This document shows, in pieces, positions 282 to 13,094 of a DNA stretch of 13,094 bases; the first letter of the stretch is position 1, and each line of letters opens with the position of its first letter. Below the pieces are notes generated by a model. That model saw nothing but the letters and a program-made list of their open reading frames with translations. It did not search any database and was not told the origin of the DNA. The position numbers were made by a program, and so were the translations under genes. Source of the DNA: a virus (taxonomy: Duplodnaviria > Heunggongvirae > Uroviricota > Caudoviricetes); the IMG/VR virus record IMGVR_UViG_2602041549_000009; one strand, 5' to 3'.

Positions 282-1553
282 CTATTCTTTCCAGTCAATC
301 CCATCCAGTAAGCACCCTGCCTCATATTGCCCCACCACCCAGTCAAGGTTACAGGACTCATAGAACGCGAGGCGATTATACTGAGGCTCGTTTTTTACCA
401 GGCCACGAACGGAACCACGCTGCCAGTACAGACACAGATTGGCAAGAGGTGTGATCAATACAGCATTGTCCGGGAAAAATGGAACGGTCACAGCCGGGAG
501 ATTCCCCAGAACAGGATTTTTAATGATTTCCTCGTTAAGCAAAATTTCCTGATTCATCTGCGATGGATCAAGACGGTTTATCAAAGGCCATTGCTTACGG
601 ACCAGCGTATTGTGACTGCATACGGCCACAATGCCTTCCTGCCACTGTTCATCAATCATGGATTGCCAGGCATCCAGAACGAGCGCATCTATCGTATGGT
701 GTGTACCGCGTGTATTACTTTTCGGTGATGAAACAGAAAGGCCGCTGATAACCCTTCCCGCCGCTTCATTTCGAAACTTCTGCAACCAGCCCACGCCGCA
801 ATCATCACGCCCCGGATATGTTCCGGGATCTGATGTATCGGCATAGTGCGTACCGTTAAAACCAATCTGAATCAAATCCAGCCATTTCCGGCGTTCAAAA
901 GCAGCCCGTGCGCTTCCTTCAAGACCGTTTGCGGATGCGTGAGCATCAACATTGTCGTAGTTCAGCGCAAAATCAAAATTAACCTGCTCGCAGCGGTAGC
1001 CCCTTGAAACCAGTGAATGCGCCTGTAGTGGCGAACGGCGCTCGTGAGGTGGCGATGTACGTGCCAACGGCCCCGAAGCGTCTACCAGCACAACCCGACC
1101 TGATATATCCGTAACAGGCACGGGAGTTATTTCAGCAAGGAAATTTGCCTGCCATCCACTGGCAAGCGTTGCACTCTGGCGGGGAACGGGTTCAACTTCT
1201 GACGAATAGCGCGCAGTGTCACCGGAAAAGTGCAAATCCTTCGGATGCTTTCCGGTTATCGACTCGATAGCGCAATTGAAAACCATCTGAGCCTGTTGAT
1301 TTCGTTGTGATGCAACAGAATCAGCAGTGCAATTATAACGCTCAATGCCGTCGTTATTACCCCCACCGCTTGCAGTATGCAGGGTGTGAAGCTCAAGCTC
1401 ACGCTCCAGTTTTTGATATTCATTGTCCAGCGCGCGACGCGTCTCATTGCTTATGCTTGCTGTGTTTGCTTTCAGGCGATTCCGGGACATTAATCCCCTG
1501 AGTCGGCTCACTATATCAGCGCCGTGCAAATGTGGAGTATTCAGACCGCCCAT
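282..1553 (-). CDS. Hypothetical 423-aa protein of unknown function, translationally coupled to the upstream Psu-like gene; candidate satellite hotspot cargo
   Basis: Long minus-strand ORF. I chose the start at 1553 (MGGLNTPHLHG...) because its ATG overlaps the upstream stop as TAATG; the ORF track's 1694 start would overlap the upstream gene by 141 nt. I see no Walker A, HNH, reverse-transcriptase or other motif I can name. Confidence 0.6.
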   Translation of the reverse strand: MGGLNTPHLHGADIVSRLRGLMSRNRLKANTASISNETRRALDNEYQKLERELELHTLHTASGGGNNDGIERYNCTADSVASQRNQQAQMVFNCAIESITGKHPKDLHFSGDTARYSSEVEPVPRQSATLASGWQANFLAEITPVPVTDISGRVVLVDASGPLARTSPPHERRSPLQAHSLVSRGYRCEQVNFDFALNYDNVDAHASANGLEGSARAAFERRKWLDLIQIGFNGTHYADTSDPGTYPGRDDCGVGWLQKFRNEAAGRVISGLSVSSPKSNTRGTHHTIDALVLDAWQSMIDEQWQEGIVAVCSHNTLVRKQWPLINRLDPSQMNQEILLNEEIIKNPVLGNLPAVTVPFFPDNAVLITPLANLCLYWQRGSVRGLVKNEPQYNRLAFYESCNLDWVVGQYEAGCLLDGIDWKE

Positions 1554-2263
1554 TACTGCCACCCCCGGCAGAGTTCTCTGCCCTCCGCAAGGTCGCGCAT
1601 TTTTTCTGGATTCTGTCGCGCCGCGCTCCATTGTACAGGTGAAGGGGCGTTCCTGATTGTGCGGCTTACCGAATCCGGGAGTTTCTCCGGGCAATAACGC
1701 AGCGGGCTGGAGGTGTCGCTTTCGGTATCGTTAATCCGGCCGCGAATCATCCCGGCACTTTCAGCAGCATCTGTCGCTTTCAGTGTTTCGCATATTTTCT
1801 TTTCTGCGTTATACAGCGGCTGGCCAAGCAGCTCACATAAACCACGAATCAATAACAGAGCAGGGGTCAGCTCGTTAATCAGTTCGGGAAGTGCTTTTGC
1901 AAATATCTCTGCCCGCAACTTATTATCAATGCTTTCGTAAGCACAACCAGCCTCTGCCGCGTTATAACGACACTCCAGTAGCCTGATGCGCGCCTCATCA
2001 TGCAGCACCCGCAGACGCTCAAGATTTTCTCGCGCCACACCCGCCTGAATGGATAATTTCGCGGAGGCTTCCGTTTTTACGCCCAGCGCAGACAGGATTG
2101 AGTTCTGCCAGTCACGATCGAGAGATTCCAGCTCCCCTTTCGTCTGTTCGATAGTTGCTTCCAGATTGGTGATTAATGATTCCTGTTCACTGAGTTTTGC
2201 CATGGCTGTATCAAACTGTGCTTTACATACCTGATGTTCGGCGCTTGCCTGAGTTATATCCAT
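1553..2263 (-). CDS. psu: Psu-like (polarity suppression / capsid decoration) protein, P4 family, 236 aa
   Basis: ORF with SD AGGAG 6 nt before the ATG at 2263. Helical, coiled-coil-like composition with stretches (AQFDT near the N-terminus, ALPEL, ATDA) that resemble P4 Psu as I recall it. Lies downstream of an Ogr/Delta gene as in P4. Assignment is from memory, not alignment. Confidence 0.5.
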   Translation of the reverse strand: MDITQASAEHQVCKAQFDTAMAKLSEQESLITNLEATIEQTKGELESLDRDWQNSILSALGVKTEASAKLSIQAGVARENLERLRVLHDEARIRLLECRYNAAEAGCAYESIDNKLRAEIFAKALPELINELTPALLLIRGLCELLGQPLYNAEKKICETLKATDAAESAGMIRGRINDTESDTSSPLRYCPEKLPDSVSRTIRNAPSPVQWSAARQNPEKMRDLAEGRELCRGWQ

Positions 2264-2269
2264 TATTTG

Positions 2270-2380
2270 CTCCTGTAATACATTTTTTTACTTACGCCGA
2301 TTTTTTCCATATTGCGTAATACATTCCAGCCGATATTGTTCTCGTAATACGCTCACAATACTGTTGTATTACGCTTTCTT
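2270..2380. promoter_or_regulatory. Divergent promoter/operator region with repeated CGTAATAC (GTANTAC) sites
   Basis: Intergenic between the Psu-like gene (minus) and the plus-strand RHH-like gene. Copies at 2276-2282, 2316-2322, 2344-2350 and, inverted, 2366-2372; the last two form a perfect inverted repeat CGTAATAC-N15-GTATTACG (2343-2373). Confidence 0.5.
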
Positions 2381-2428
2381 ATATCGCGGGTGTTAAATCC
2401 CGGCATAAACAATCAGGGAGGCAACACG

Positions 2429-2662
2429 ATGAAAAAACAAAAGAAAATGCGATGCGTATTACGCTGTATTCGTATCCCGCACGAAATCGACCATAAAATA
2501 AATCAGATATGTCAGGACAGAGAGATGAACTACTCCCAGTGCGTCAGAATGTTTATCAGTCAGGGAATTAAGGCCGGGGAAACGCAGGAAGAAGACTGCA
2601 ACGGGCGCAATGTAGCGGGGGATGTGTGGGCCTGGGCAAATGACCAGAACCACACGACGTAA
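2429..2662 (+). CDS. Small ribbon-helix-helix-like DNA-binding protein (putative regulator or antitoxin-like), 77 aa
   Basis: Plus-strand ORF with strong SD GGGAGG 7 nt before the ATG at 2429 (MKKQKKMRCVLRCIRIPHEIDHKINQI...). The basic N-terminus followed by an RIPxEIDxKIN segment is RHH/CopG-like by eye. Convergent with the Ogr-like gene. Confidence 0.5.
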   Translation: MKKQKKMRCVLRCIRIPHEIDHKINQICQDREMNYSQCVRMFISQGIKAGETQEEDCNGRNVAGDVWAWANDQNHTT

Positions 2663-2712
2663 TACAGAAATAACGCAGCCGGTCACACTCGCTGGCTGTG
2701 TTATACAAATCA

Positions 2713-2895
2713 CTATGAAGTTTTCGACTTCCTGCGCTTAGTAATGCGCACAAACGACTCAAGCGTACAAAAACAGGCCCCACACTCAATATTATTGCAC
2801 TGGTAATACGTTCTGTAGATGTTTTGTTCGTGTTCTTCCAACGAACGACCACGGGTGCGGGCTGAAGCGCCACAGGCCGGGCAAGGGAAAGACAT
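2713..2895 (-). CDS. Ogr/Delta-family zinc-finger late-gene transcriptional activator, 60 aa
   Basis: Protein MSFPCPACGASARTRGRS...YYQCNNIECGACFCTLESF matches the Ogr/Delta pattern CPxC...YxQCxNxxCxxxFxTxES of P2 Ogr / P4 Delta. SD AGAGGAG 6 nt before the ATG. Confidence 0.85.
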   Translation of the reverse strand: MSFPCPACGASARTRGRSLEEHEQNIYRTYYQCNNIECGACFCTLESFVRITKRRKSKTS

Positions 2896-3160
2896 ATCAC
2901 GCTCCTCTTACTGGTGTGAAATTTAACCTATTATATCTTCTGTCGCCCCCTCTGGCTGTATCAAATAAACCCGCAGCAGTCGCCGCGTATTACGCACGGG
3001 CGCGCCGTTCCCATGCTCACTCGTCACATTCCCCGTATCAGTTCTCTCTTGCCGTAAGAACGGCTCTGGCTGGCGATAAAACTAACCCGGTCGGGGCATT
3101 CCCGTAGCCTTTAGCGTAAATGTAATTTACCCCCTGAAACGCGTGCTGTTCCCCCGTCAC

Positions 3161-3196
3161 CTGCGCACAAAAAACTCACCGTTTTTTGTGCACGCA
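3161..3196. promoter_or_regulatory. Near-perfect ~33-bp palindrome (operator-like)
   Basis: TGCGCACAAAAAAC-tcacc-GTTTTTTGTGCACGCA; the core arms CACAAAAAAC / GTTTTTTGTG are perfectly complementary. The AT-rich stem argues for a protein-binding dyad rather than a terminator. Confidence 0.4.
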
Positions 3197-3257
3197 CGAA
3201 ATCGCCCTCCGGGCGCGCCAGTACTGGGCCGGATGGGCAAAAAGTTACTCTAAAAAA

Positions 3258-3284
3258 TTGTGCAAATTTGTGCACTTTTGTGCA
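3258..3284. repeat. Three direct repeats of TTGTGCA spaced at 10 bp
   Basis: TTGTGCA at 3258-3264, 3268-3274 and 3278-3284, one helical turn apart, consistent with cooperative binding on one DNA face. Confidence 0.45.
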
Positions 3285-3508
3285 GATGAACAATAGCGTC
3301 AAAAAGAGTGCTTTTGAGAGATTTTTTATGGCAACTGCGCCGCGTGTATTACGTTTTTTACCATCCCCGCCGCGCATGTACATACTTCATTTTTCTGCCA
3401 AACAACAGGGCAACTCCCCGTGACTGACAGCCCCAAAAAATCAATGATTGATGTTGCATTTTTGTTAGAGGTCAGGCCAGTTGTTTTGGGGCTCTGCCTC
3501 ATAATCCG

Positions 3509-3827
3509 GTGGGGGGTGCGCAAAGCGGTTACAACGGTTACAACAGTCAAAAATACCACTTAACAACATGATTTTAATGGATATTGTTTGTAACCGCTTT
3601 GCGGTTACACTGCGGTTACAACGGTTACAGGTTTCAAAAAGCACTTTATTATCAATCAATTAAAAACTTAACCTGTAACCGCCTGTAACCTAACAAAACG
3701 GTTACATGTAACCGCGTTGTAACCGCTTTTGTAACTCATCCGACCAGTTATAATATATTGATATATAATACAAAAATAAGTAATTCTAAATTTGTAACCG
3801 TTGTAACCGCTTTGCGCATCCCCCCCC
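3509..3827. repeat. Palindromically organised iteron field: at least 13 copies of GGTTACA / TGTAACC flanked by a ~32-bp inverted repeat with an AT-rich centre; candidate replication origin (ori/crr-like) or recombinase arm-site cluster
   Basis: Forward GGTTACA at 3527, 3536, 3603, 3614, 3623, 3700; reverse TGTAACC at 3589, 3674, 3684, 3708, 3718, 3793, 3802. Outer inverted repeat 3511-3543 versus 3793-3827 (26 bp identical). Inner perfect 12-bp inverted repeat CGGTTACAGGTT (3622-3633) / AACCTGTAACCG (3670-3681) across an AT-rich spacer. Confidence 0.7.
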
Positions 3828-4075: not shown

Positions 4076-5086
4076 TTACTCTGCTGGCTCTTTTTCTTCG
4101 GTGATCACTATGTTGGCTACCGGGTTAAATCTCATGGCATCTGCCAGGTAATCCGGTGCAAAATGCGCGTAAGTCATCGTCTGCTGAATAGTGCTGTGTC
4201 CTAGTATTTTCTGCAATGTGATGATGTTTCCACCATTAATCATAAAGTGAGTGGCAAAGGTATGCCGTAAAACATGCACAGACTGACCGACGGGTAAATC
4301 AGGCCGCACAGTCCTTATTGCACTTCTGACAGTTGCATAATTAGGTTTCATTAATCTTCCGGTCGCCTTTACTTTGACCAGTGATTCAAGATCTTTAGCG
4401 ATTGGAACGACCCGCCTTGAGCCGTTCTTTGTCTTCATAAAAATAACCTTTCCGCCAATTATGTGCTCACCTTTAATATTGGCAATCTCACCCCAGCGCC
4501 CACCTGTAGCCAGACACAACAATACAGCCTTAAGATTATCGCCAGATAAAAGCGCGGTTAGCCTGGAAATATCATCATGTGCAAGATAAGCCATTTCTGG
4601 CTGATTAATGTTTAACTTACGTATCTCGCGAAACGGGTTATTACCCGCAAACTCTTCAGCATCAATCAGCTTTTCAAAGAAACCGCTCATCATGGCACAA
4701 TAGCGATTTACTGTTGACTGTTTAATTCCACGATTCATTAATTTAAGTCGATATCTGATAATATTTTTCCGGGTTAAATGATCGCTTCTGTTTATCCCAA
4801 GTTCGCGCATATCACAAAGAACAGCTTCAATTCTTACCCGCGTCATCGCTCCATAACGATGATTCTTGCCATGATACGCCCACCATAATTCCAGAAGATC
4901 GCTTAACGCTTTACGTTCAATGGGCTTTTCGACCCACTCTTTGTTGTGGTAGTGCATCAGAACATGGCGTTCATACGCCACTGCTTCACCACGAGTATCA
5001 AATCGCCGCCTGAATCTTTTTCCTTCTGCTCCTGCAGGCCGCACGTCCACAGCAAACTTACCGTTAACCAACTTCTTTATCGTCAT
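4076..5086 (-). CDS. Tyrosine-type site-specific recombinase / integrase, about 336 aa
   Basis: C-terminal catalytic region HVLRHTFATH ... LGHSTIQQTMTYAHF (HxxR and catalytic Tyr) is typical of the phage-integrase family. The start at 5086 (MTIKKLVNGKF...) overlaps the primase stop as ATGA. Confidence 0.85.
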   Translation of the reverse strand: MTIKKLVNGKFAVDVRPAGAEGKRFRRRFDTRGEAVAYERHVLMHYHNKEWVEKPIERKALSDLLELWWAYHGKNHRYGAMTRVRIEAVLCDMRELGINRSDHLTRKNIIRYRLKLMNRGIKQSTVNRYCAMMSGFFEKLIDAEEFAGNNPFREIRKLNINQPEMAYLAHDDISRLTALLSGDNLKAVLLCLATGGRWGEIANIKGEHIIGGKVIFMKTKNGSRRVVPIAKDLESLVKVKATGRLMKPNYATVRSAIRTVRPDLPVGQSVHVLRHTFATHFMINGGNIITLQKILGHSTIQQTMTYAHFAPDYLADAMRFNPVANIVITEEKEPAE

Positions 5087-7758
5087 TTTTCGGTGACCTC
5101 CTTGTAACTGAATATCCGGCATTTCAGCACTTCCGGCTCTCTGGCTTCGGCTACTCCTTTTCCGGCGTTTGCCTGTCTGGACACCTCACTACGAATGGTT
5201 TTACGGCCTGTCAACGGTCGGGAACGCCCAGCTCCGAGCAACTCAATCATTTCGCGATCGGTTCGGATCTCCACGCGGTGAATGGCGGCAGCCTGTGCCA
5301 GTTGCGGAATACTGATAGCAATCCCTTCGCGGCATCCCTTGCCGTAATGGTTTACACCGTATTTTGTTATGCCGTCCAGGAAGTCGAACGCCTCCCAGAA
5401 CTCCATCACTTCTGGCAAGTCAGCCGCCGCCGCTTTAACCTGCGCCGTTGCCATTTGTTCCAGTTCCAGACATGTGGCATCAAGCCATTCATCCGGGATA
5501 TCGATAACGCATTTCAGCGCCCTGACCAGCGCGATAAGTTGCGCGTGATTTTTGGCAATACGGGGATGGCGAATATTTTCGCATCCGCAAAGGCGTTCCG
5601 TTTCAGCGGGCGATACCTCCAGGAACGTTTGCATAATCGCCCGTTCCTGACTTACCGCCCGGTGAATAAACCCCGATACCTTCTCGACGGGGTAGAGTTC
5701 CAGCCGTCTCGCCGCCAGTCGGGTATCAGGTGAATGGCGTTTTTTATCGGTGTATATGCGTATCAGGCGCTCAATAATTGCCGGCGAGGCATTTACCCGC
5801 GCATTCTGCGCAATCACGATAGCGCCCTTAAAATCCGGGTCATAGGTGTTGTTATTGTTGGCCTTAACCCCACGAACACCGATACCGCCACCGTTATAGA
5901 GGCTTTTCAGGTTATCGAAGTCAAACGCACCTCTTTTTTGCGCATTGTCTCCCCGGTCTGCTTCAATCAGAACAACAGGCAATCCGGCGACCTGTCCAAA
6001 GGTGCGCTTCCAGCCCGCCTCTGATCCTTTGGTTGGATCAACTCCTTCGTAGTTGTCACGACCGCACAGCCGCCAGCAAAAATCAATCAATGTTGATTTG
6101 CCCGTTCCGGGCTCTCCGGTGACTTCAAGGAAAGGGAAGGATTCTTCTTTATCCCGGATTTGTTCGCTGAACAGGGAGCCCAACCAGAAAGCCAGGGTAA
6201 TAATTCCCTTTTCACCAAAAGCCAGCCAGAGATCTTCCACCCAGGACGCTGTAAATTCATCCGGTTTTTTGTAGTTAATCTGTAATGTGGGGTTTTCGCT
6301 TAATGGTTTTGCGTTTATGCCATCAATTTCAAAATAATCCTCGTCATTGATTTCATAAGTTTTTCCCTTGTAAACAGCAATATCATTAAACAGCCATGCC
6401 CCAATCGCCTTGTTGTATCCGATAAAATCCTGACCAATAACCTCTTTTATTGCGGGAAGGTCATTTTTTATTAATGCGTCAAGCTGCGTAGTCGTTCCGG
6501 TATAAATACCGCCTTTTGCCACGTGTAACAGGCGTTTTTTAAATTCAGATGAGGATGTTAATTGTCCTGATGTAAAGGTGTTTTTCACCGTAGCACCATC
6601 CGGGAACGTAACACGGAAGTAATACCATGCTTCATCCGTGTCATTATTTCGAATGTAATAAAGCGGCGCTGGGTTACAGTTTGCGATTTCTTTTACTGCA
6701 CCAGATTCCTTAAGTGCAATTTTGCGCGCTTCATCCTCATCAACATTTCGCTCATTAATGACACGCTCAACAGCCTTCATATGGCGCTCAATGTCCAGCT
6801 TGAACCAGAAAACACGGTTATCAAAAGTAAAATGAAATTCCTTCCGCTCACGAAAGGAAAACATTATTAGTGCCTTATCTCTTGGAGATTTCGCCAGCAA
6901 TAAATCACCGTAATAACGGTATCTTTTCACATCATGGCCACGCAGCTTTCCGGCGATGTGTAAATCATTCCAGTCGCGTTTATTGTTGTTTTTACCTGGC
7001 AACGCCGCTGCCGTTCTCCAGCCGTCTTCGGCGCTGCGTTCTGCATGTTTTTTCGCGTAACGCTCACCTGCACGCCCGTTATCCAGCGCCCACACGATAA
7101 CCGGACGGGGATTATCCCCGCACAGCTTCGCCAGCTCTTCCAGTGCCTTATCAGGGTAGTTCACGGCAGACATGACAGAAACGGCCGCAATGCCATTCTG
7201 GTTAAGGCTGATGGCATCAAAGATACCCTCACAAATCCAGATTTCTTTGGCCTTGCTTAAATCTGCTCCCGGATAAGCCCACCACAACCCCTTGTAGCTG
7301 CCGGAAAAATTCGCCTTCCGTTCGAAGCGTTCCGGTCGGTCTATGATGCGCTCCCACCACACGTCGTCAGCCAGCGTAAAACGCACAGTAGCGGCCTGTT
7401 CGCCGCTTTCCTTGTCTTTGTATCGCTCCTGGGTAAATACCCCCTTCAGTGGCTCTGTAGCAATATTGCGTGCCTCCAGGAGATAAGCTGCCGCCGCTGC
7501 GTATGGTTCATCTTTCGTACTGATATAGCGATCTGACCATGATGAAAACACATCCGGGTAAAGTTCTTTAGTCAGCAGGTCTGTACCGCATTTATTTTCA
7601 CGCCCGCAGTGTACGATGTACGGCCTTTCAAGGCTGGTAAACAACTCTTTCTTTCCACATTGCGGACAAACACCATACCGGAGGTAGTTATTTTCTTCTT
7701 TGAAGTTGTAATCACGGATAAGACGGTTAATAATCTCTTTTCTGATGTCAGATTTCAT
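5083..7758 (-). CDS. P4 alpha-like primase-helicase (zinc-binding N-terminus, TOPRIM-like motif, C-terminal P-loop NTPase), about 891 aa
   Basis: N-terminal CPQCGKK...HCGRENKCG zinc-ribbon-like motif; WICEGIFDAISL (EGxxD TOPRIM signature); Walker A GEPGTGKST and Walker-B-like VVLIEADRGD. Start placed at 7758 (MKSDIRK...) because SD GGAG sits 8 nt upstream; the ORF track's 7782 start lies inside the upstream hairpin. Confidence 0.85.
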   Translation of the reverse strand: MKSDIRKEIINRLIRDYNFKEENNYLRYGVCPQCGKKELFTSLERPYIVHCGRENKCGTDLLTKELYPDVFSSWSDRYISTKDEPYAAAAAYLLEARNIATEPLKGVFTQERYKDKESGEQAATVRFTLADDVWWERIIDRPERFERKANFSGSYKGLWWAYPGADLSKAKEIWICEGIFDAISLNQNGIAAVSVMSAVNYPDKALEELAKLCGDNPRPVIVWALDNGRAGERYAKKHAERSAEDGWRTAAALPGKNNNKRDWNDLHIAGKLRGHDVKRYRYYGDLLLAKSPRDKALIMFSFRERKEFHFTFDNRVFWFKLDIERHMKAVERVINERNVDEDEARKIALKESGAVKEIANCNPAPLYYIRNNDTDEAWYYFRVTFPDGATVKNTFTSGQLTSSSEFKKRLLHVAKGGIYTGTTTQLDALIKNDLPAIKEVIGQDFIGYNKAIGAWLFNDIAVYKGKTYEINDEDYFEIDGINAKPLSENPTLQINYKKPDEFTASWVEDLWLAFGEKGIITLAFWLGSLFSEQIRDKEESFPFLEVTGEPGTGKSTLIDFCWRLCGRDNYEGVDPTKGSEAGWKRTFGQVAGLPVVLIEADRGDNAQKRGAFDFDNLKSLYNGGGIGVRGVKANNNNTYDPDFKGAIVIAQNARVNASPAIIERLIRIYTDKKRHSPDTRLAARRLELYPVEKVSGFIHRAVSQERAIMQTFLEVSPAETERLCGCENIRHPRIAKNHAQLIALVRALKCVIDIPDEWLDATCLELEQMATAQVKAAAADLPEVMEFWEAFDFLDGITKYGVNHYGKGCREGIAISIPQLAQAAAIHRVEIRTDREMIELLGAGRSRPLTGRKTIRSEVSRQANAGKGVAEAREPEVLKCRIFSYKEVTEK

Positions 7759-7771
7759 ATATAAAACTCCA

Positions 7772-7800
7772 CCCCACTGCACCTTTTGCAGTGGGGTTTT
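7772..7800. other. GC-rich hairpin between the 101-aa gene and the primase start (bidirectional terminator or attenuator candidate)
   Basis: CCCCACTGCA (7772-7781) pairs with TGCAGTGGGG (7787-7796) around a 5-nt loop. On the plus strand it is followed by TTTT (7797-7800); on the minus strand it is followed by GGAG-TTTT and then the primase ATG. Confidence 0.45.
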
Positions 7801-8980: not shown

Positions 8981-9252
8981 ACGTGGTGGCGAGACGTAAC
9001 AGGGTTGACAGACTGGCAAATTGGGAAACCAGCGAGCATAAAGCTCCCCCATTACGCCCCGCCATAATACGGGAAAGGGTGGTATTACGGGCACAAAAAA
9101 ACCGCATTACGGAATACAAGCGGCTACCCGCCAATTTATTCAGGCTGTCAAACCCGGCACCTGTTTTATGAGGTGCGGGCAAACGATACGCCATGACAAA
9201 AAAGCGAGTCAAGCAATATTGCAAATTATTTTGGCGCGATTGCGCTGAGTGA

Positions 9253-9839: not shown

Positions 9840-10061
9840 TTAAGCCTGAAAACGTTGTTGTTTTCTTTCTTCTATCCAGTCGATAATTTCCTCTTCAACC
9901 CATGCAACCGCACGAGGGCCTATTTTTATTGGTTTGGGGAATATATCAGATTTTATATCTTCGTAAATTCGAGCTCTCGATCTCCCTGTGATTTCAATGA
10001 CTCTGGGGAGTCTTATTAATTTTTGAATCCGCCTTTCGCTGGTCTGTGAGTATGCTGACAT
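9840..10061 (-). CDS. alpA: AlpA-family phage regulatory protein (helix-turn-helix; excisionase/transcription regulator), 73 aa
   Basis: Protein ...IRLPRVIEITGRSRARIYEDIKSDIFPKPIKIGPRAVAWVEEEIIDWI matches the AlpA/HTH_17 pattern (hydrophobic-TG-S/R-R-x-x-IY ... FP-K-P-x-K-x-G-x-R-A-x-x-W). SD AGGAGG 5 nt before the ATG. Confidence 0.85.
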   Translation of the reverse strand: MSAYSQTSERRIQKLIRLPRVIEITGRSRARIYEDIKSDIFPKPIKIGPRAVAWVEEEIIDWIEERKQQRFQA

Positions 10062-10671: not shown

Positions 10672-11934
10672 TCAGTCTGTTTCGTTAGCCCATTTAAAAT
10701 CATAGGGGGCAATATATGCCGTCTTGCAGGTGTCGAGATAATCAGCCCACCATTGCAACATTCGGCGGCGTTCCTGCATATGTTCAGCTCTGTGAATGTA
10801 TGCAGCCCGGACACTGCCTCTTTCCCTGTGACTCATCTGAAGCTCAACGGCTTCTCTTGTCCACCTGCCTGACTCTGTCAGCGCCGAACAGGCCATAGCT
10901 CTGAATCCGTGGCCACAAATATCTTTTTTTGTGTCGTATCCCATGTGGCGTAATGCCTTGTTAATGGTGTTTTCGCTCATTGGTTTTATCTGGTAATGGT
11001 CGCCGGGGAAAATAAACAATTCATCACCGGATATATTTCTTATATCGTCAAGAAGCTGCATGGCCTGAGTGGGCAAAGGGATGGCGTGAGGGGTTCCCAT
11101 TTTCGTTCCACGATATGAATATTTTACGCCTTCTATTTTTTCGCGTTCTGCTGGTATTACCCACATTGATTTATCAAAGTCAATTTCATTCCAACGAGCA
11201 AAACGCAATTCACTTGAGCGAATAAAAATTAATAAATTTAATTTTAGTGCAAATTGCGTTAATAACCGTCCATTCATCTTGTGGTGGTAATCATTTATTT
11301 TGCCAAGTAATTCAGGTAATCGCTCAAGGGGAAGAGCGGGGCGATGTTTGGTTTTATTAGTTTCGATTGCACCGTTCAGTTCCTGCGCTGGATTGTATTT
11401 AATCATTCCATTCTGTACAGCGTAGCGCATAATGGCGTTCATTCGCTGCTTGTTACGTGATGCTGTCTCAAGCACTCCTTTATCTTCCATTTTGCGTAAA
11501 GGAATCAGTAGATCCATGGTTGTGATCTCGTTAATTGGCCTTTTACCAAGAATGGGGAAGATGTGGTTTTCCAGGTCTTTTAAGACTTTTTGCGCGTGTA
11601 ATTCGCTCCAGCCCTTTTTCCGGCTGTGCCATTCTCTGGCAACGTCTTCAAAAAGCACTATTTGAGGTTTTGGTGTGTGCAGTGGGTCAATGCCTTTAGC
11701 CAGGCTCGCCAGATATTCATCACGAGCGTTCCTTGCCTGTGCAAGTGTTACGGCAGGATAAATGCCTAAAGCTCGGGTCGTTTCTTTACCGTTGATAACC
11801 TTGCGAAAGCGCCAGTATTTTGAGCCGTTGGGGTGAACATAGAGATACAGGCCTTTCCCGTCACGAAGTTTTTTAATTTTGTTGTTGTCCTTATCTGGTT
11901 TGGCGTTACGTACAGCTACATCAGTCAGTTTCAT
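10672..11934 (-). CDS. int: P4-type tyrosine integrase (DUF4102-like N-terminal arm-binding domain plus catalytic domain), about 421 aa
   Basis: N-terminus MKLTDVAVRNAKP...GKGLYLYVHPNGSKYWRFR and C-terminus HGFRAMA...RAAYIHRAEHMQERRRMLQWWADYLD are characteristic of P4/CP4-57-type integrases. SD GGAGG 9 nt before the ATG at 11934; the track's 11976 start has no RBS. Confidence 0.85.
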   Translation of the reverse strand: MKLTDVAVRNAKPDKDNNKIKKLRDGKGLYLYVHPNGSKYWRFRKVINGKETTRALGIYPAVTLAQARNARDEYLASLAKGIDPLHTPKPQIVLFEDVAREWHSRKKGWSELHAQKVLKDLENHIFPILGKRPINEITTMDLLIPLRKMEDKGVLETASRNKQRMNAIMRYAVQNGMIKYNPAQELNGAIETNKTKHRPALPLERLPELLGKINDYHHKMNGRLLTQFALKLNLLIFIRSSELRFARWNEIDFDKSMWVIPAEREKIEGVKYSYRGTKMGTPHAIPLPTQAMQLLDDIRNISGDELFIFPGDHYQIKPMSENTINKALRHMGYDTKKDICGHGFRAMACSALTESGRWTREAVELQMSHRERGSVRAAYIHRAEHMQERRRMLQWWADYLDTCKTAYIAPYDFKWANETD

Positions 11935-12200
11935 TATGTTGATCCTCCAGACGGGTACAAATAAAAATCGAACCAAGCGTACCCGTTTTTATACCCATTT
12001 TAATATGGGCTTCAGGCAAATTTAACGAGAGATAACGAGACAATGGAAGAGATTTAACTCATTGAAAAACAATGGGTAATGGTTTTTTCTGAGAGATTGC
12101 GAGAAGTTGCGATGGTGTCCCCTGCAGACATCTACTTGAGGCAGCAGGGGATTGATTGGAATGGTATTTTTTAGATGTGAGAAATATTTTACCCGCTATT

Positions 12201-12401
12201 TTACCCATTGGCGCGGCTTAAGAGCTTATTTTTGAATTCACAATGGTCGCGATATAACCATCTTGCGCGTCCGTGGATAACTTTGGCTTTTGGCAGGTCG
12301 CCGGACTTAATCCGGTCATAGATGAAGGTTTTACCGAAGCCAGTATCGGCCATGATGAATTTCAAATCAACCAGGGAATCAGGCTGTAGTTCGTGTTGCA
12401 T
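12201..12401 (-). CDS. Second AlpA-like helix-turn-helix regulator / excisionase-like protein, 66 aa
   Basis: ...FIMADTGFGKTFIYDRIKSGDLPKAKVIHGRARWL fits the AlpA/HTH_17 pattern less closely than the 9840-10061 gene. SD GGAG upstream of the ATG. Lies directly upstream of the integrase in the same orientation (xis-int-like). Confidence 0.6.
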   Translation of the reverse strand: MQHELQPDSLVDLKFIMADTGFGKTFIYDRIKSGDLPKAKVIHGRARWLYRDHCEFKNKLLSRANG

Positions 12402-12440
12402 GAGTGCTATCTCCGAATAGGGAATCGAACCTGCAAATCA

Positions 12441-12468
12441 GGCAATAAAAAACCGCCATCAGGCGGCT
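12441..12468 (-). terminator. Rho-independent terminator after the 12510-12809 gene
   Basis: Stem CCGCC / GGCGG (12453-12457, 12462-12466) with loop ATCA; on the minus strand it is followed by TTTTTATTG. Confidence 0.55.
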
Positions 12469-12509
12469 TGGTGTTCTTTCAGTTCTTCAATTCGAATATT
12501 GGTTACGTC

Positions 12510-12809
12510 TTATTCGATGCGCACTCCTGGTATTTCGCCTTTTGATATTGCTAAGTCATAAATTTGCGCTGCACTATACCCATCTCGCATCCATGAATCT
12601 AAGGCGCGAACAGCCTCGCTACGCTTTTTATCTTCTCTCTCATTTTTGATATCAACGAGGACATCAACGCAATTAAGGCAAATGTGGATTTTGTCCTTAC
12701 ATTCGATCATGGCGGCTTTGCCATGATTTCCTCCACACAGTGAGCATAAATCTTCAGGGTCTGGCTGGTATTTCTGTAACGTTAGAGGGTTGAATGTTGA
12801 ACAGGCCAT
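12510..12809 (-). CDS. Hypothetical cysteine-rich (possible zinc-ribbon) protein, about 99 aa
   Basis: Cys cluster CSLCGG...C...HICLNC. Start is ambiguous among three in-frame ATGs (12821, 12815, 12809); GGAG precedes the third (MACSTFNPL...). Confidence 0.5.
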   Translation of the reverse strand: MACSTFNPLTLQKYQPDPEDLCSLCGGNHGKAAMIECKDKIHICLNCVDVLVDIKNEREDKKRSEAVRALDSWMRDGYSAAQIYDLAISKGEIPGVRIE

Positions 12810-12850
12810 AATCATCTCCATAAAACAAAACTCGCCGTAGCGAGTTCAGA

Positions 12851-12880
12851 TAAAAGAAATCCCCGCGAGTGCGAGGATTG
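12851..12880 (-). terminator. Candidate intrinsic terminator after the 12881-13094 gene
   Basis: On the minus-strand RNA: 9-bp stem AAUCCUCGC / GCGGGGAUU (one G-U pair) with loop ACUC, followed by UCUUUUAU. Confidence 0.45.
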
Positions 12881-13094
12881 TTATTCATTGCCGATATTAA
12901 CCTTTATCGCGTACACCTTTACCGGTTTATCACCGAAGTGGGGATGTGTGATTGTCTTTATTTCATATCCGTCATACGGAACATCAATTCTACGGCTGGA
13001 ATCGTCGCGCTTCGGATATCCCTTTGTGATAATCAGGCGGTCATATTCCCGGAACATGGATTTGCCCCTATATTTCCAGACATCTGTTATCACT
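12881..13094 (-). CDS. Hypothetical protein, probably 5'-truncated by the window edge
   Basis: ORF runs to the window edge with no ATG (the track's start is a GTG at the boundary). No recognisable motif. Confidence 0.4.
   Translation of the reverse strand, partial: VITDVWKYRGKSMFREYDRLIITKGYPKRDDSSRRIDVPYDGYEIKTITHPHFGDKPVKVYAIKVNIGNE

Follow-up and report, generated by a model that had tools for sequence, protein, structure and literature searches.

The window, by which we mean the whole stretch of 13,094 nucleotides that was analysed, contains on its plus strand an open reading frame, 2429–2662 with the stop codon included, that starts with the ATG at 2429 and is a real gene for a protein of 77 amino acids. 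This gene and the genes, RNAs and signals around it are as follows.

282–1553, minus strand: 423-aa homologue of the P2-family major capsid protein (PF05125, E = 1.8e-72), extended at its N terminus by about 120 aa; comes second in the divergent operon
1553–2263, minus strand: coiled-coil protein of 236 aa with a remote likeness to Sid; comes first in the divergent operon
2415–2421, plus strand: Shine-Dalgarno sequence AGGGAGG, evident in the sequence itself, at a distance of 7 nt from the ATG
2429–2662, plus strand: gene of the predicted ribbon-helix-helix (RHH) protein, with a predicted β-strand at residues ~9–16 (CVLRCIRI), helix A at 18–31, helix B at 35–57 and a C-terminal helix at 62–72 that includes the invariant Trp69
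2670–2704, no strand: hairpin with a 14-bp stem that separates the RHH gene from the convergent Delta gene; candidate terminator for both directions
2713–2895, minus strand: Ogr/Delta-family zinc-finger late activator, 60 aa (PF04606, E = 3e-11), convergent with the RHH gene
4076–5122, minus strand: tyrosine recombinase, 348 aa, Int_N-type, immediately downstream of the primase
5083–7782, minus strand: Toprim/DUF5906 primase, 899 aa
8982–9069: C4 immunity RNA (70.5 bits, above the gathering score)
9095–9176: isrK RNA (52.3 bits, above the gathering score)
9840–10061, minus strand: AlpA-type gene
10672–11976, minus strand: P4-type integrase, 434 aa, with an arm-binding domain, near the right end

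A first-pass annotation had singled out the 77-aa gene as the lone plus-strand gene of its surroundings, preceded by a strong ribosome-binding sequence, divergent from the operon of the 236-aa protein and convergent with the Ogr/Delta gene. The Shine-Dalgarno sequence and both orientations are as it described, and the gene is the sole plus-strand gene of the satellite core, in agreement with the PGAP annotation of the same element, where a RefSeq CDS of identical extent (WP_000744301.1) is labeled hypothetical; the other plus-strand coding stretch in the window is the 3' end of a mazF cargo gene (1–238) at the left edge. The same annotation had placed a hairpin at about 2678–2699; the hairpin is real (dG = -20.9 kcal/mol, z = -4.15, with none of 200 shuffles folding as well), but it is larger than that and spans 2670–2704. 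In Salmonella elements (L002, 6231–6241) the RHH and Delta genes end 9 nt apart and the hairpin is lacking, so that the two transcripts must overlap or collide and antisense interference is possible.

The stop codon of the 236-aa gene overlaps the start codon of the capsid homologue by one base. The 236-aa protein had been labeled Psu-like, a designation that fits only weakly, since hhalign gives E = 0.0015 to P4 Sid and 0.12 to Psu (PHROG Psu-like, E = 0.013), and the protein, which has a W...A.GV motif in common with Sid, is the closer to Sid. Within its own family sequences are very diverged (22–35% identity), with the C-terminal motif PSP..Q...A....KM..L..G.E.C.G kept. The 423-aa product, previously taken for anonymous cargo, is instead homologous to P2-family major capsid proteins and shares 35% identity over 313 residues with that of P88, and capsid homologues of 341–474 aa occupy the same position in all related loci. 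The order of the locus is capsid homologue after the ~240-aa gene, divergent from the RHH gene; Ogr/Delta, convergent with it and located by tblastn in those loci where it is uncalled; then non-coding cos/ori DNA and the alpha primase.

With a primase/helicase, Delta, integrases, AlpA and immunity RNAs present, the element is a P4-like satellite. The window is without a psu-delta-sid operon with recognisable Psu and Sid; Delta is separate and oppositely placed, and the capsid homologue is second in the operon. The inner recombinase (4076–5122) is missing from some relatives (L009, L010). The satellite surveys that we searched contain no description of P4-like satellites with a capsid gene or with the RHH gene. 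The slot downstream of the capsid homologue holds a toxin-antitoxin module that differs by element (MazEF in the window, L004, L007 and L016; RelB-ParE in L002 and L005; HicAB in L010 and L014) and is a small cargo hotspot at the element's end. Beyond the integrase, 11977–13094 carries further small minus-strand genes, among them one for a 66-aa AlpA/HTH_17-like protein (12201–12401). In its right-hand part the window departs from the element of E. coli FDAARGOS_1299, to which it is identical elsewhere; there may be a tandem insertion of a second element.

The non-coding DNA between Delta and the primase side of the element includes a block of about 165 bp (3125–3290) that is 77–81% identical to P88-type (Xuanwuvirus) and 500465-2-type (Gemsvirus) phages, in which it adjoins the portal gene. 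This block is, by its similarity to P88-type phages, the probable cos/packaging region, which would indicate the type of helper; it contains TTGTGCA three times at 10-bp phasing (3258–3284) and a GCACAAAAAAC/GTTTTTTGTGC hairpin at 3165–3191, and a search for the 19-nt P2/P4 cos end found no match even at 3 mismatches. Farther right, in 3516–3816, CGGTTACA recurs at least 14 times, in either orientation, and its copies form long inverted repeats, in which 3508–3543 pairs with 3792–3827 at 94% complementarity around an AT-rich core at ~3740–3790. The alpha primase probably reads this array as the origin of replication; a similar array, of TGTAACA, is present in L007.

A subgroup of P4-like satellites has the RHH gene as a conserved part of its core. 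The surrounding 751-bp segment occurs at ≥95% identity in 57 of 5426 complete E. coli genomes, and Escherichia sp. MOD1-EC7003 has an identical copy of the gene. The position of the gene is unchanged in nine diverged Escherichia and Salmonella loci, and because homologues at 30–40% identity share its length, its pattern and its genomic place, 2429–2662 is judged to be protein-coding; dN/dS among the close E. coli copies, with only 4–6 differences, is uninformative. M1, R12, R15, P17, D21, I24, Y35, C38 and W69 are invariant in the alignment. A word-indexed search returned only close copies, plus some frameshifted ones, and four further small proteins, at 33–38% identity, came from an exhaustive search of 1.84 billion representatives; with this search and profile searches of 5.8 billion proteins the family saturates at about two dozen clusters, of which those that are named are all from Escherichia or Salmonella, and one UniRef entry carries the name "Arc family DNA-binding protein". 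Scanning one genome per species gave one true locus and a probable chance match in an archaeal MAG, scanning viral contigs gave near-identical copies only, no homologue was found among 50,697 phage records, and P4 has no counterpart of the gene. Several of the database copies (P0004, P0007 and P0008) are frameshifted after about residue 36–45, and therefore either some elements are decaying or the assemblies contain errors.

That the protein is RHH-like, as the first-pass annotation proposed, is borne out at the level of the fold and not by sequence profiles. Given an alignment of 16 sequences, AlphaFold2 predicts an extended segment (residues 8–17), helices at 18–31 and 35–57 and a further helix at 62–72, with a pLDDT of 85–93 over residues 11–50, while the model from the single sequence is poor (pLDDT 59). 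The predicted monomer thus has the strand-helix-helix fold of about 45 residues, and its N-terminal segment, being extended and not helical, would be consistent with a two-stranded antiparallel β-ribbon. Foldseek matches in the PDB and BFVD are dominated by Arc, CopG, AmrZ, ORF56, NikA and phage proteins named Arc-type or CopG-like; their probabilities reach 0.9–1.0, and their E-values are weak, which a domain of 45 residues leads one to expect. The model, which has the C-terminal helix with Trp69, resembles the RHH antitoxins TacA, KacA and ParD. No curated RHH sequence model in Pfam, PHROGs, NCBIfam or the PDB profile search scored above threshold, so that the protein does not belong to a curated family at the sequence level; the PDB profile search gave nothing significant, and neither did hhalign against single Arc and CopG sequences (Arc, E = 0.15). 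The best matches below threshold were CopG_antitoxin (15.1 bits, cut-off 28), RHH_9 (12.3, cut-off 23.4) and RelB_DinJ (16.6, cut-off 45.65), and nearly all of the sub-threshold matches are RHH families (CopG_antitoxin, RHH_9, RelB/DinJ, VapB, ORF56, and CopG-like and Arc-like PHROGs). On the basis of the model, an RHH fold of the 77-aa protein is supported.

The intergenic region had been called operator-rich, and it is indeed the site of a recurrent palindrome. The 9-bp sequence YGTAWTACR has 8 copies in the window where 0.31 are expected, each of them within 2274–3353, and CGTAATAC likewise occurs 8 times against 0.25 expected; the fullest form, GCGTAWTACGC, has 11 bp and is found twice. 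The copies, which have no strand, are these.

2274–2282: candidate site O1, palindrome TGTAATACA, adjoining the Shine-Dalgarno sequence of the 236-aa gene (complement of 2270–2274), within the 5' leader of that gene
2315–2323: candidate site O2, palindrome CGTAATACA, 113 nt before the RHH ATG in all motif-carrying lineages
2343–2351: extra palindrome CGTAATACG, at the centre of the activator dyad in the window's lineage
2365–2373: candidate site O3, palindrome TGTATTACG, 63 nt before the ATG in every motif-carrying VLR-type lineage
2455–2463: candidate site O4, palindrome CGTATTACG, inside the RHH gene on Val-Leu-Arg codons; 11-bp form GCGTATTACGC at 2454–2464
2658–2666: extra palindrome CGTAATACA, overlapping the RHH stop codon and specific to the window's lineage
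2986–2994: palindrome CGTATTACG, with the 11-bp form GCGTATTACGC at 2985–2995, located 91 nt upstream from the start codon of Delta; the cos block lies ~161 nt to its right
3345–3353: palindrome TGTATTACG, ~60 nt right of the block of cos homology

The motif is shared by distant relatives. L002 has six copies of TGTAWTACA where 0.29 are expected, and the Salmonella loci carry TGTAWTACA likewise, yet their RHH proteins are only ~33% identical to that of the window. Relative to the RHH ATG the sites lie at -154/-157, -113, -63 and +24 across lineages in intergenic DNA that is otherwise diverged, and in an alignment of nine intergenic regions the palindromes stand out as footprints. The copy within the gene (O4) arises from the choice of GTA TTR for the Val-Leu codons, which is made in 7 of 7 VLR lineages; in L009 the intergenic motif is an imperfect palindrome, TGTATAACA, and GTATTAC is nevertheless kept inside the reading frame, so that the in-gene "site" may reflect only AT-rich codon choice near the 5' end. 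P4 has no copy of the palindrome, and the helper-type phage P88 has two copies of its 7-mer core in 35.8 kb, which is the level of chance and led us to reject the palindrome as a regulatory motif of the helper phage. Since the phage records also lack an RHH homologue, both motif and protein are specific to the satellites. On these sequence grounds the most likely operator of the RHH protein would be YGTAWTACR, in its fullest form GCGTAWTACGC, with GCGTAATACGC as an example of a candidate target.

Between the -113 and -63 copies, six lineages carry TTGT-N12-ACAA, which contains TGT-N12-ACA, the consensus of Ogr/Delta-dependent late promoters, a box whose sequence and dependence on Ogr are given in PMC3931495. 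It is flanked by conserved -10-like hexamers, GATAAT or GACAAT rightward and GATARN or TATAAC leftward on the other strand, and the distance from the centre of the dyad to the predicted starts is 55.5 nt rightward and 58.5 nt leftward, identically in 6 of 6 lineages. One activator box thus appears to serve two divergent late promoters, as a single dyad is reported to do for the divergent PP' and PO' promoters of the P2-like phage Smp131 (PMC3931495). The promoters were placed by phylogenetic footprints, and all transcription starts are predictions. So placed, O2 in the relatives is centred at about -30 of the leftward promoter of the Sid-like and capsid genes, and O3 at about -35 of the RHH promoter. 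An exact TGT-N12-ACA box is found nowhere in the window, which has the following in its place.

2337–2357, no strand: central dyad TGT-N15-ACA in a 27-bp imperfect palindrome (2334–2360), at the position of the relatives' TGT-N12-ACA Ogr/Delta box
2393–2398, plus strand: candidate -10 hexamer TTAAAT of the RHH promoter, which aligns with GATAAT of other lineages and is a prediction; alternative TATATC at 2380–2385

The window has no clear candidate for a leftward -10 hexamer, and a simple sigma-70 scan finds no plus-strand promoter in the region. The RHH promoter looks like an Ogr/Delta-dependent late promoter, and the protein is therefore more likely to be a late negative-feedback regulator than a repressor that maintains lysogeny.

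The reading that we favour, with a probability of about 0.55, is that the RHH protein is a late-expressed autorepressor that limits, through the palindromes, its own promoter and the operon of the Sid-like and capsid genes. A repressor of the late operon was among the proposals of the first-pass annotation; what the analysis adds to it are candidate operators on the -35 regions of both divergent promoters, while we infer that the RHH protein is what binds the palindromes, that its binding represses and where transcription starts. In outline, Ogr from the helper or Delta from the satellite would fire both divergent promoters, the leftward one for the Sid-like and capsid-homologue genes and the rightward one for the RHH gene, so that the RHH protein accumulates. 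Its dimers would then bind the palindromes on both -35 regions, and its own synthesis and the capsid-redirection operon would be shut down or capped, in an Arc-like negative feedback. In the lineage of the window, where a palindrome lies in the middle of the dyad, the protein could also compete directly with the activator, and the C-terminal helix with the invariant Trp may link dimers on separate sites. A purely transcriptional role leaves unexplained the palindromes that flank cos, which are not on any recognisable promoter.

A possible tie between the protein and the palindrome is a co-variation of the two. In the L007/L016 lineage the β-strand reads SIRRTIRIP, against SVLRxxRIP in the others (VL to IR), and TGTCWGACA replaces TGTAWTACA at the O2 position (the equivalent of -113) and at the cos -161 position, with 4 copies against 0.32 expected; no clear sites are seen in this lineage at the O1, O3 and O4 positions. 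Written out, the two types are TGTAATACA for the VL strand and TGTCAGACA for the IR strand, and the change from Leu to Arg at residue 11 accompanies a change from A:T to C:G at the fourth base of each half-site. hhalign aligns IRIPHEID with LRWPREVL of Arc, and from this match and the strand pattern of RHH proteins residue 11 presumably corresponds to Gln9 of Arc, which contacts bases. The co-variation is suggestive, not proof: it is a single evolutionary event in a lineage in which Delta and the Sid-like protein differ too, and Delta or another satellite protein may therefore be the binder instead.

It is accordingly conceivable, though we consider it unlikely, that the palindromes are bound by another factor (Delta, AlpA or a host protein) and that the RHH protein regulates something else or binds other DNA. 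Delta is present in every locus and, at the level of the whole protein, co-varies with the palindrome as much as the RHH protein does (the identity matrices of RHH, Delta and Sid-like proteins give no indication which of them tracks the palindrome type); moreover, both halves of the Ogr/Delta consensus, TGT and ACA, are present in TGTAATACA, and a palindrome of the window lies inside the activator dyad. Six lineages, however, have a separate, canonical TGT-N12-ACA box at the canonical distance, which means that Delta/Ogr already has a site of its own, and the E. coli copies of the palindrome often read CGTA...TACG, losing the TGT and ACA halves. In the Salmonella locus L005, the Delta gene (~6284–6460, minus strand) has an in-frame stop after about 5 codons (FPCP*CG), and the RHH gene and seven perfect palindromes are kept despite it. 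The change in the β-strand is, furthermore, a specific one that matches a change at the centre of the palindrome.

The palindromes around cos invite two further readings. The window, L002, L007 and L016 have a copy (each of its own lineage's type) ~161 nt to the left of the cos block, L002 and L015 have one ~56 nt to its left, and the window, L002, L005 and L015 have one ~60 nt to its right; the -161 copy of L007 is 404 nt from the start of Delta, so its position follows cos and not Delta. Distinctly unlikely, in our view, is that protein and palindrome form a lineage-specific "specificity pair" in an undescribed branch of P4-like satellites, which would make a P2-type capsid protein of their own and not just remodel that of the helper, and that the pair gates the Ogr/Delta-driven divergent late promoters and, through the copies at fixed distances to either side of cos, controls which DNA is packaged by the helper terminase. 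That the RHH protein mainly marks DNA for packaging or maintenance (compare ParG and omega), with the cos-flanking arrays addressed to the helper terminase and promoter binding secondary, we hold to be very unlikely, even though the fixed distances of these lineage-specific palindromes (about -161, -56 and +60), the L007 copy that follows cos and the helper phages, which have the cos block without palindromes, would all suit it: it is on the two promoters and the leader that sites are most closely packed and best conserved, the exact cos cleavage site was not located, and we know of no precedent for an RHH accessory factor of cos in P2/P4 systems.

Binding of the RHH protein to the palindromes could also have the opposite sign, making it a co-activator or anti-repressor of the late promoters. 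Some RHH proteins do activate transcription, AmrZ, one of the structural matches, being an example; the palindrome takes the place of predicted -35 regions that are weak, and the cos-proximal copies are far upstream of any obvious core promoter. We give this little credence, since a site at -30 to -35, between activator box and -10, would be typical of occlusion, and sites beside a ribosome-binding sequence and inside a coding sequence suggest blocking. An antitoxin-like role is highly improbable; in it the protein would tie up a partner by its C-terminal tail, be it the Sid-like protein, the capsid homologue or a protein of the helper, and would bind DNA in dependence on this partner. Against such a role, the gene is monocistronic in 9 of 9 loci, with no co-transcribed toxin and with structural or regulatory neighbours; the true toxin-antitoxin modules of the element form separate cargo on the downstream side of the capsid gene; and sites flanking cos are unlike toxin-antitoxin autoregulation. 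The earlier suggestion that the RHH protein regulates the 423-aa protein in this manner is not supported, given that the latter is a capsid homologue and that a co-transcribed partner is wanting.

If the autorepressor reading is correct, an RHH protein on the -35 regions would add a negative arm to the Ogr/Delta circuit. The late promoters of P2 and P4 are the textbook case of purely positive control by Ogr and Delta, and to our knowledge, and in the papers that we searched, no repressor of these promoters has been described in P2 or P4. As a regulator the protein is ordinary in type, and the interest lies in its placement on Ogr/Delta promoters and in the element that carries it: the gene marks a compact Escherichia/Salmonella group of satellites with a Sid-like protein, a P2-family capsid homologue of their own and a cos region in common with P88-type phages. 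These satellites resemble P4 in the alpha primase, the Delta-family activator, the C4 and isrK RNAs, the AlpA-type regulator, the integrase(s) and the remotely Sid-like protein, and also in that their cos region is a copy of that of a P2-family helper. P4, in contrast, is without the RHH gene and the palindrome and has delta inside its sid-delta-psu operon, whereas here the capsid homologue is the satellite's own and delta is transcribed separately. The P2-type PP and PO and the P4 Psid and PLL promoters respond to Ogr/Delta through TGT-N12-ACA, and in the relatives a single dyad of this type stands at about -55 with respect to both of the divergent promoters, of which one is that of head genes; unlike those late promoters, the ones considered here have a palindromic site at each -35 region, and the spacer of the dyad in the window is 15 nt, not 12.

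Among RHH proteins, the type II antitoxins (TacA, KacA/AtaR, ParD and the RHH-type MazE) differ from the 77-aa protein in that the latter has no adjacent toxin, is not part of a bicistronic operon and has morphogenetic neighbours. CopG of pMV158 and omega of pSM19035, regulators of plasmid copy number and partition, have the RHH fold in common with it; they bind short repeated or pseudo-symmetric elements that overlap -35 regions, one protein serving several promoters, and omega reads 7-bp heptads in arrays. The palindromes here are, unlike those arrays, isolated and 40–50 bp apart, and there is no membership of these families at the sequence level. Arc, encoded with Mnt in the immI region of the Salmonella phage P22, is likewise a small phage-borne RHH protein in a divergent arrangement of regulatory genes, and is expressed from a promoter that it represses, so that it exerts negative feedback on an operon of the lytic phase; LRWP of Arc is what the conserved IRIP segment is aligned to, and Arc structures are among the top Foldseek matches. 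In contrast to Arc, the 77-aa protein has an extra C-terminal helix and lacks significant sequence similarity to it, its candidate palindrome of 9–11 bp is repeated at many places where Arc has one 21-bp operator, and its promoters appear to depend on the Ogr/Delta activator. By these comparisons the closest functional analogues would be Arc/Mnt of P22 and the plasmid repressors of the CopG/omega type, and the closest in predicted shape the RHH antitoxins.
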